Shown here piece after piece: positions 12,483 to 13,229 of a DNA stretch of 64,000 bases; positions within the stretch are counted from its first letter, which is position 1, and every line of letters begins with the position of its first letter. The position numbers and the translations under genes were made by a program. The notes beneath the pieces are model-generated. The model did not search any database. It saw nothing but the letters and a program-made list of their open reading frames with translations, and had not been told where the DNA came from. The DNA is from Thermoanaerobaculia bacterium (GTDB lineage: Bacteria > Acidobacteriota > Thermoanaerobaculia > JALWYX01). The stretch spans positions 13,161 to 77,160 of the forward strand of contig JALWYX010000012.1 of the NCBI GenBank assembly GCA_027078415.1. The letters run 5' to 3'.

Positions 12483-13229
12483 TTAATACCTTATATTTCT
12501 TATTATTTGCATAGACATATCGTGCTTCATTCTTAGTAATTGGGTTATCATTTGGATCATTTGCATTATCTTCTGCATCTTAAATTGTAGTTGCATAAGT
12601 TTTTTCTGGTAGTTGGGATCGTTGGGATCTAAGCTTTGAATTTCCTTTTCTATACTGTTCATACTGTCGTATGCTTTGGAAGCAGCGTCAAGCAGAGCCT
12701 TGTCTCCACCGCTTACACCACCAGTTGGAGGAGTTGATGGAGCTTCACCACCTCCTACAGGGGGGCGGACAACCGGGGGACGTATACCTGTACCTGGAGG
12801 TAGATTTGGAGTCTCAGGTGCCGGCTTAGGCGCTTGACCTCCTAAGAGTTTACCCAATATGAAACTCCCAAGGTCAAAGACTTTTTTAAGCCCTTCTAAA
12901 AACTTACCAGATGAAAATGTTTTTACTATGTCAAACACACCCTTTAGAATTTTACCGAGATCCTGCAAGTTGAAAGGTAGGTTTTTGGGAAAAGGGAATA
13001 ACTTTCCTAGGACGTTACCAAGTATTCCACCAAGCCCTTTCAATCCTCCTAATCCCTTAGCTATCAGTCCTGCAGGACCTCCTAACAGTGACGCTACAGT
13101 TCCTAAAAAGGGACCACCTAATTTAGCAAAACTGCTAGCGAACTTACTGACAGCTTTGGGTATAGCTTTAAATACTGAACCAACACCTTTTGCTACCGCT
13201 TTAAATACTTTCCCTAAGAACAGTACCAT
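12483..13229 (-). CDS. Cys-free Gly/Lys-rich low-complexity protein: cecropin-like amphipathic repeats, Pro-rich linker, Met/Gln-rich C-terminal helical domain
   Basis: 248 aa ORF preceded by strong RBS (gaggagg) and followed by a perfect terminator hairpin; no C or W residues. Confidence 0.5.
   Translation of the reverse strand: MVLFLGKVFKAVAKGVGSVFKAIPKAVSKFASSFAKLGGPFLGTVASLLGGPAGLIAKGLGGLKGLGGILGNVLGKLFPFPKNLPFNLQDLGKILKGVFDIVKTFSSGKFLEGLKKVFDLGSFILGKLLGGQAPKPAPETPNLPPGTGIRPPVVRPPVGGGEAPSTPPTGGVSGGDKALLDAASKAYDSMNSIEKEIQSLDPNDPNYQKKLMQLQFKMQKIMQMIQMITQLLRMKHDMSMQIIRNIRY

Follow-up and report, generated by a model that had tools for sequence, protein, structure and literature searches.

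A probable needle-superfamily protein with a large N-terminal head, encoded apart from type III secretion genes in a Thermoanaerobaculia bacterium

We analyzed a stretch of 64,000 nucleotides (the window) from a Thermoanaerobaculia bacterium of the phylum Acidobacteriota (assembly GCA_027078415.1, contig JALWYX010000012.1, positions 13,161 to 77,160 of the forward strand), with a focus on a single gene, here called the target. The gene encodes a complete protein, whose exact public copy is P0001 and whose C-terminal part resembles SctF, the needle protein of type III secretion systems (T3SS). The coordinates of all features are given in Table 1. The start codon of the target is supported by homology, since the N-terminus of its family, MILFLGG, corresponds to MVLFLGK in the target. 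Downstream of the stop codon lies a perfect hairpin with a folding energy (dG) of -34.5 kcal/mol (RNA fold; z = -7.0), and none of 200 shuffled sequences folded equally well. A consensus terminator scan made no call for this hairpin because the U-run is split as UUUUGAAAUUUG. The hairpin is symmetric (A4/T4 flanks) and may therefore act in both directions. The initial annotation, made by a model from the letters of the sequence, had listed an open reading frame (ORF) of 248 aa with a strong ribosome-binding site (RBS) and a perfect 16-bp terminator. The ORF is exactly as quoted there, and GGAGG stands 7 nt from the ATG; the hairpin is indeed perfect, but its stem has 19 bp, and the scan did not call it a terminator.

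Cys and Trp are absent from the protein, which contains 14% Gly and 11% Lys. It can be divided into three parts with different compositions: an N-terminal domain (residues 1–131; 19% Gly, 18% Leu, 14% Lys, 11% Phe, net charge +14), a linker (residues 132–175; 30% Pro, 20% Gly), and a C-terminal domain (residues 176–248; 12% Met, 12% Gln). These residue counts agree with the earlier description of a Gly/Lys-rich N-terminal part, a Pro-rich linker, and a Met/Gln-rich C-terminal part free of Cys and Trp. The target has no segment with the hydrophobicity of a classical transmembrane helix (the maximum Kyte-Doolittle mean over 19 residues was 1.42, against the usual cut-off of 1.6), while the maximum in other members of the subfamily was 1.6–2.15. 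Inspection of the target by eye revealed no Sec signal or lipobox, and no P/VxLxxP chaperone-binding motif.

The last 79 residues of the target were used for an exhaustive search of 1.84 billion representative proteins (50%-identity clusters). The search gave 72 matches, about 58 of which were true relatives, and in every one of these (~58 of ~58) the needle domain ends no more than five residues from the last residue of the protein, behind N-terminal extensions of 0 to ~570 aa. The family profile was aligned by hhalign with a profile of seven canonical SctF sequences with a probability of 93.6% (E = 2.1e-7), and the alignment spanned the turn and the whole C-terminal helix up to the last residue. 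Together, the seven canonical sequences recovered YscF, MxiH, PrgI, BsaL, and PscF in the PDB with E-values of 1e-11 to 1e-32. Comparison of the family with PrgI, whose sequence was verified against 2lpz, gave an end-to-end alignment (E = 2.8e-4), in which DPNDP stood opposite KPSDP and IIRNIR exactly opposite IIQNFR. The turn consensus of the family is LDPxxPxYQK. At the level of individual residues, D237, N245, and R247 of the target are equivalent to D70, N78, and R80 of PrgI, and R233 and H236 replace K66 and K69. The best PDB match of the family profile was 7y6c_F (E = 5.8e-4), the C-terminal fragment of a needle protein crystallised in complex with its chaperones; among solved needles, the one closest to the family in sequence belongs to the SsaG/EscF type. 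When the whole target was compared with PDB sequences, nothing meaningful was returned.

Structure prediction with AlphaFold2 (AF2), based on an alignment of 14 sequences, gave a helix at residues 174–199, a loop with the DPNDP turn, and a helix at residues 207–247, with a predicted local distance difference test (pLDDT) score of 85–95. Among curated models, residues 187–246 matched PF09392 (T3SS_needle_F) with an E-value of 0.042 and 14.5 bits when the whole protein was used, and with 0.0037 and 17.9 bits when the C-terminal domain was used alone (cut-off 29.4); the match to TIGR02105 (SctF) had an E-value of 0.038 and 14.4 bits (cut-off 41.7). In the family as a whole, PF09392 matched 30 of 54 aligned C-terminal domains, with a best E-value of 1.2e-7. 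In addition, BLASTP of the target against a 78-aa needle-size paralogue from one T3SS operon (locus L088, described below) gave an E-value of 5e-7. Taken by their profile alignments, the C-terminal ~73 residues of the target appear to be a needle-type helix-PxxP-helix module homologous to SctF. The initial annotation had recognized no family in the protein and had set confident homology to a known structural family against its own interpretation; the hairpin of the SctF superfamily in the C-terminal block, together with the whole-protein relatives described below, provides such homology.

The N-terminal domain, which matches no Pfam or NCBIfam family, was found by a local hidden Markov model in 13 other representatives (alignment A3, 14 members). 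The blocks conserved in the target are LLGGPAGLIA, LGNVLGK, and FPFPKNLPF, followed by two helices (residues 88–128); the corresponding pattern in A3 is MxLFLGG, DTFSKIxGP, LLGGPxGxIAGxxLG, and LP(L/F)P...FG, again followed by two amphipathic helices, and F34, P79, and P81 are conserved residues. The amphipathic character of the N-terminal segments, as proposed initially, was above chance: the mean 18-residue hydrophobic moment was 0.40 compared with 0.19 +/- 0.03 for shuffled sequences, and none of 1000 shuffles reached 0.40. The domain also carries six GxxxG motifs. The AF2 pLDDT was below 50 at residues 1–80 and 70–78 at residues 88–128. Lys-richness (11%) is confined to the target and P0002, its only close homologue (60% identical), with 0–9% Lys in the other subfamily members, while Gly-richness, a low content of acidic residues, and a net positive charge are kept throughout the subfamily. 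The most obvious K-x-x-K repeat is an 11-residue one, KVFKAVAKGVG / SVFKAIPKAVS, encoded by a tandem duplication of 33 nt. At this position P0002 has a gap of 7 residues; the duplication is lineage-specific and recent.

Whole-protein comparisons indicate that the target is homologous over both its N- and C-terminal domains to the proteins encoded by the first gene of acidobacterial T3SS operons, here called gene 1. BLASTP against one of them, P0011, gave 36% identity over residues 66–247 with composition correction on (E = 6e-26), and tblastn of gene 1 from locus L087 against the window gave an E-value of 1.3e-32 over its full length (residues 1–256). Between the target and P0002, identity was 96% in the C-terminal domain (73 residues), 51% in the N-terminal domain, and 20% of identical columns in the linker, which is the most variable part of the target and varies in length across the family. 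The high identity of the C-terminal domain, compared with 20–51% elsewhere, suggests purifying selection on the C-terminal module. Such a gradient of conservation would be expected if the protein were a filament subunit whose core is buried and whose head is exposed. We consider it very likely that the target is a gene 1-type protein of the T3SS needle superfamily (SctF/SctI). Since it is not small, scores below the curated cut-offs, and lies outside any T3SS cluster, the plain annotation “needle protein” should be avoided.

Other searches for relatives of the target were less productive. A word-indexed search of 5.8 billion proteins returned the target itself and one homologue, and the same search with the family profile returned the 137-aa subclass only. 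The patterns used for GTDB representative genomes were narrow and found no relative, so that absence there is uninformative; a metagenome scan gave at least one locus, a short one; a scan of viral contigs and tblastn against plasmids found no family member. The family spans Acidobacteriota (Thermoanaerobaculia, Vicinamibacteria, and “bacterium HR11”), a Vicinamibacteria protein being included in the class with short extensions, and its sequences are almost entirely metagenomic. Within P0017–P0073, at least five N-terminal classes, unrelated to one another, are joined to the needle module. One of them consists of repeated units of ~110 aa with the pattern ISGxxLLxAIxxGTADLDGQAAGxEF (P0024, P0032, P0040, and P0059), and another has very long Gly/Asp-rich extensions (P0028, 434 aa; P0070, 647 aa). 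Together, the N-terminal classes look like a polymorphic family with exchangeable heads.

The genomic context was readable for eight loci of relatives. Three of them belong to the target subclass (P0011, P0072, and P0013, on contigs of 17–55 kb) and share the N-terminal domain of the target; three belong to the short-extension class (P0082 and P0053, one of these proteins being carried by two loci); the remaining two are short contigs (L085 and L086), on which gene 1 and then a tetratricopeptide repeat (TPR) gene are visible. In all eight loci, gene 1 is followed after 12–35 nt by a gene for an LcrH/SycD-like TPR protein of ~145–185 aa (TPR1), and in all six loci that are long enough it heads a non-flagellar T3SS operon. 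These operons begin with gene 1, TPR1, a protein of ~65–89 aa, a protein of ~77–88 aa, a second TPR protein (TPR2), and a protein of ~147–159 aa; they continue with SctJ, a protein of ~320 aa, SctL, SctN, SctO, and SctP, and end with an FHA/YscD-cpl/FliMN_C (SctD/Q-type) protein and FliO, then SctR, SctS, and SctT where the contig continues. FliO is cut off in L089, and L092 adds SctU and SctV. The 10 kb read downstream showed no secretin.

TPR1 matched almost the entire SycD/LcrH model (E = 4e-15 to 1e-12), at 55.6 bits compared with an equivalog cut-off of 104.8. TPR2 matched CdsG/HrpB1, and the protein of ~150–159 aa matched the inner-rod protein SctI (PF17001, E = 5e-5). The protein of ~78 aa is a needle-size paralogue from the same domain family as the target and ends in AIRNIR (...ARHDSATTAIRNIR). 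It occupies the E-F-G position between the small protein and the CdsG/YscG-like TPR protein, upstream of SctI and SctJ. Thus, three needle-superfamily paralogues are encoded in the acidobacterial T3SS operons. The SctN homologues nearest to those of the operons carry the names Thermoanaerobaculia, Acidobacteriota, and “bacterium HR11.” Three SctN proteins among those closest to the acidobacterial type (P0158, P0226, and P0227) have the amino acid signature of AT-rich genomes, like the proteins of the window, so that this type of T3SS also occurs in low-GC lineages.

The likeness of the target to SctF proteins (PrgI, MxiH, YscF, PscF, EscF, and SsaG) lies in the hairpin of ~75 residues, with a C-terminal helix that runs to the end of the protein, and in the T3SS operons of the relatives. 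Unlike SctF, a single-domain protein of ~70–90 aa, the target is three times longer and has 175 residues ahead of the hairpin; gene 1 coexists with a separate needle paralogue of normal size in the operons of the relatives, and the target is encoded away from any T3SS genes in the window. A second comparison concerns EspA of enteropathogenic Escherichia coli, SseB of Salmonella pathogenicity island 2, and Bsp22 of Bordetella, which are T3SS substrates of ~190–250 aa that polymerise atop the needle via a C-terminal coiled coil and have a dedicated chaperone encoded nearby. The role proposed here for the target, an extension of the needle, is analogous to theirs. Sequence similarity to the EspA family was not detectable, the module of the target is still recognisable as a needle domain, and its N-terminal domain is Gly-rich and predicted to be largely disordered. 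Models of EspA/SseB and LcrV/IpaD in Pfam and NCBIfam gave no match at E <= 10, except for a needle-tip model at 11.4 bits vs. 828.

Hrp pilins (HrpA, HrpE, and HrpY), proteins of 80–115 aa that replace the needle, have a conserved C-terminal polymerisation region and a variable, exposed N-terminus. The target shares their gradient of conservation, and the HrpB1-like gene followed by SctI and SctJ in the relatives resembles the hrpB operons; the separate needle-size paralogue of these operons is a difference. The tip proteins IpaD, SipD, and BipD and the translocators with class II chaperones (LcrH/SycD/IpgC) are also comparable, since the gene of the relatives adjoins an LcrH/SycD-like TPR gene, the hairpin of the target could fit the needle lattice, and its hydrophobic/amphipathic region may face a membrane. 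Unlike tip proteins and translocators (SctE/SctB), the target gave no sequence match and has no clear transmembrane helix. Finally, the presence of FliO in a non-flagellar T3SS, as in the operons of the relatives, has been reported mainly for Myxococcota (PMC12248157), whose T3SS* is described as having no needle, secretin, or translocon (PMC3459982, PMC12075869). The acidobacterial operons resemble T3SS* in layout and differ from its published description in the needle-superfamily paralogues that they encode.

On balance, we lean toward an exported part that extends the needle, namely a needle-distal filament, sheath, or tip with a function like that of EspA/SseB or SctA, as the role of the target; this reading relies on gene order, domain topology, and analogy, and our preference for it is slight. 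It is favored by the presence of a normal needle gene in the operons of the relatives and by the polymorphic heads of gene 1 proteins. The target would be a T3SS substrate that is held monomeric in the cytoplasm by a TPR chaperone. After export, the C-terminal needle module might dock at the far end of the SctF needle or form a polymer in register with it; EspA/SseB filaments and the tip proteins of canonical systems behave in this way. The 175-residue N-terminal extension would be displayed on the outside of the filament or at its tip. In solved needles (solid-state nuclear magnetic resonance of PrgI and cryo-electron microscopy), the subunits turn their N-terminus outward and line the lumen with their C-terminal helix, hence the suggested display of the extension. 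The glycine-zipper-like, weakly cationic amphipathic helices of the N-terminal domain could then contact or perturb the target membrane.

A more far-reaching version of this role can be put forward only tentatively. According to it, the target could be a “needle-tip-translocator” in a single polypeptide, which combines a needle-lattice module with a membrane-active glycine-zipper head, and the family would form a polymorphic system of exchangeable tips. Equally speculative is the suggestion that the system represents an early-branching, FliO-containing acidobacterial T3SS akin to the “needleless” myxobacterial T3SS*. The orphan copy in the window might, with the same reservation, serve as a reserve head, an alternative whose gene lies apart from the machine; orphan VgrG/PAAR tips in the type VI secretion system offer a parallel.

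Several results weigh against a needle-distal role of the target. Tblastn with 45 proteins from three operons found no T3SS gene in the 64-kb window other than the target, and none was present in the 8 kb beyond the 3′ end of the window. The best match to the TPR1 chaperone gene in the window had an E-value of 0.016 (tblastn), and no such gene lies beside the target; a second needle paralogue was found neither in the window nor in the 8 kb past its 3′ end. In the relatives, TPR1 could equally be a needle chaperone of the YscG type, which weakens the translocator-like part of the argument. The target's own scores against the needle models of Pfam and NCBIfam are below the curated thresholds, and its N-terminal domain was modelled by AF2 at low confidence. 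A Foldseek search with the AF2 model (best E-value 0.56) was uninformative because helical hairpins are generic. The assignment of a tip or filament role is based on gene order, domain topology, and analogy only.

The main rival to the needle-distal role is that of a major needle or pilus subunit, i.e., a Hrp pilin-like protein with a large exposed N-terminal domain, in which case the ~78-aa paralogue would be a minor, adaptor, or rod-proximal component. We regard this as rather unlikely. The complete C-terminal polymerisation module, the combination of a conserved C-terminus with a variable N-terminus that is typical of Hrp pilins, and the place of gene 1 at the start of the operon, beside a TPR chaperone gene, are all compatible with a major subunit; however, the ~78-aa paralogue occupies the E-F-G site upstream of SctI-SctJ, where true needle genes lie, and N-terminal extensions of 0–570 aa in unrelated classes fit an accessory head better than a core subunit. 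The three other explanations are each less likely. That the target is a relic, namely a copy of gene 1 orphaned by loss or relocation of the T3SS and now functionless or decaying, would explain why it is the sole T3SS-related gene in 64 kb and why the otherwise invariant pair of gene 1 and the TPR gene is broken here, but we find it quite improbable: the ORF is intact, the strong RBS and the start codon of the family are retained, and the 96% identity of the C-terminal domain to P0002 indicates purifying selection on the module. The decaying ORF that the initial annotation had allowed for is not supported by these observations.

A stand-alone membrane-active toxin, bacteriocin, or harpin- or antimicrobial peptide-like protein, independent of the T3SS and with a hairpin that merely oligomerises, is very improbable in our view. 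The significant amphipathic moment, the net charge of +14, and the six GxxxG motifs of the N-terminal domain, as well as the isolated position of the gene, which has an RBS and a hairpin to itself and no neighboring T3SS genes, are what such a protein would be expected to show; against it stand all eight relatives with a readable context, which are linked to a T3SS, and neither an export signal nor an immunity gene or transporter is evident near the target. Concatenated cecropin-like antimicrobial peptides, as suggested initially for the N-terminal repeats, found no support, since the amphipathic target matched no antimicrobial peptide, cecropin, or bacteriocin family, the Lys pattern is not conserved in its homologues, and the repeats are in part the recent 33-nt duplication. 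The parallel with harpin-like or pore-forming secreted proteins held in part. Harpins (HrpN, HrpZ, Hpa1, and PopA), heat-stable elicitors of the plant hypersensitive response with a reputation for membrane activity, are type III-secreted helper proteins, so that the comparison pointed to the right biology, and the target is likewise Gly-rich, Cys-free, and presumably secreted by a T3SS; sequence similarity to harpins is absent, harpins have no needle domain, and the source is an uncultured Acidobacteriota-like bacterium and not a plant pathogen. Lowest in probability, and hardly to be expected, is a regulatory needle mimic (a plug, gatekeeper, or chaperone titrator) that occupies needle-binding sites. 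Hairpins that mimic the needle are known from the tip proteins IpaD and SipD, and the adjoining chaperone of the relatives would allow a partner-switching circuit, yet nothing specific favors a mimic, and a regulator would have no need for large, polymorphic, Gly-rich N-terminal domains.

The target belongs to a previously undescribed subfamily of the needle superfamily with a large N-terminal head; in the literature searched, we came across no account of needle paralogues in acidobacterial T3SS or of needle proteins extended at the N-terminus. Needle subunits are regarded as minimal proteins of ~80 residues, and the families of tip, filament, and translocon proteins are seen as fast-evolving, without relationship to one another, and impossible to follow from system to system. 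If the needle-distal role is correct, the family would provide a sequence-traceable link between the needle and needle-distal components, and would suggest a possible origin of tips and filaments from paralogues of the needle, comparable to that of the flagellar axial proteins. It would also be a reason to re-examine whether the FliO-containing “needleless” T3SS* truly has no needle-family genes.

Table 1. Positions of the target, its parts, and neighboring features in the window, and of the T3SS operons of relatives in their own loci.
Feature	Position	Strand	Basis or remark
Target coding sequence, complete, 248 aa + stop; needle-domain protein with N-terminal extension	12483..13229	-	ORF listing
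Shine-Dalgarno sequence GGAGG	13237-13241	-	Read from sequence; 7 nt upstream of ATG at 13229
N-terminal domain, residues 1-131; Gly/Leu/Lys/Phe-rich, amphipathic, acid-poor	12837..13229	-	Composition, hydrophobic moment
Tandem duplication of 33 nt in N-terminal domain	13150-13176 + 13183-13209	-	Direct repeats (family D3) 33 nt apart, 81% identical
Pro/Gly-rich linker, residues 132-175; predicted disordered	12705..12836	-	Composition; pLDDT <50
C-terminal needle-like domain, residues 176-248; ends in IIRNIRY	12486..12704	-	Profile comparisons, AF2
P-N-D-P turn, residues 202-205; equivalent of PrgI P-S-D-P turn	12615..12626	-	hhalign, offset by gap
Perfect hairpin, 19-bp stem + 6-nt loop; terminator-like	12417-12460	-	22 nt past target stop
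ORF of 184 aa (signal-peptide-like N-terminus) + ORF of 132 aa (lipobox-like FFYGC)	11383-12348	-	Judged by eye
Four tRNA genes: Arg-CCG, His-GTG, Arg-TCT, Pro-TGG	13368-13686	-	Immediately upstream of target
T3SS operon of uncultured Acidobacteriota, L082	10001-20414		
T3SS operon of uncultured Acidobacteriota, L087	10001-20587		
T3SS operon of uncultured Acidobacteriota, L088	975-11709		
T3SS operon of uncultured Acidobacteriota, L089	7397-16977		
T3SS operon of uncultured Acidobacteriota, L092	1-12518		

The target gene is an orphan in the window. Tblastn with the operon proteins matched the target with gene 1 (E ~1e-32) and with the 78-aa needle (E = 6e-9), and SctN found only the alpha and beta subunits of the F1 ATPase. 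Being an orphan with its own RBS and a terminator-like hairpin, the target presumably works with a T3SS whose genes lie elsewhere in the genome, and nothing else in the window hints that this low-GC, deep-branching lineage may possess such a system. The neighbors of the target are an ATP synthase operon, two lineage-specific ORFs for secreted proteins or lipoproteins, four tRNA genes, and the gene for electron transfer flavoprotein-ubiquinone oxidoreductase (ETF-QO). The two downstream ORFs of 184 and 132 aa were considered as partners of the target and rejected: they contain no Pfam family and no TPR, and had no homologues outside the organism in the collections searched. A mobile island, as the tRNA cluster might suggest, was likewise rejected, since there are no att-like repeats and the GC content is normal. 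ETF-QO is no more than 55% identical to its counterparts in Thermoanaerobaculia/Acidobacteriota genomes, which gives the organism only a loose placement, and the loci anchored on it showed neither synteny nor a gene 1-like gene.

Two proteins with a PatA_N domain (PF14332) are encoded in the window, at 16965-18086 (-), which is ~4 kb from the target, and at 58769-59548 (+). PatA_N is also encoded upstream of the T3SS operon in L082 (338-2737 and 5459-7519); this may be a coincidence, as the domain is perhaps frequent. The region 35800-48978 (+) of the window looks like core chromosome by its ORF sizes and tRNA order, and contains a tRNA cluster, EF-Tu, and probably ribosomal-protein and rpoB-rpoC genes. 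EF-Tu and the window proteins of 1438 and 234 aa are each the sole member of a 90%-identity cluster, and all tested proteins of the window were either alone in their cluster or accompanied only by an alternative gene call from the same organism. Thus, the lineage is very sparsely sampled.

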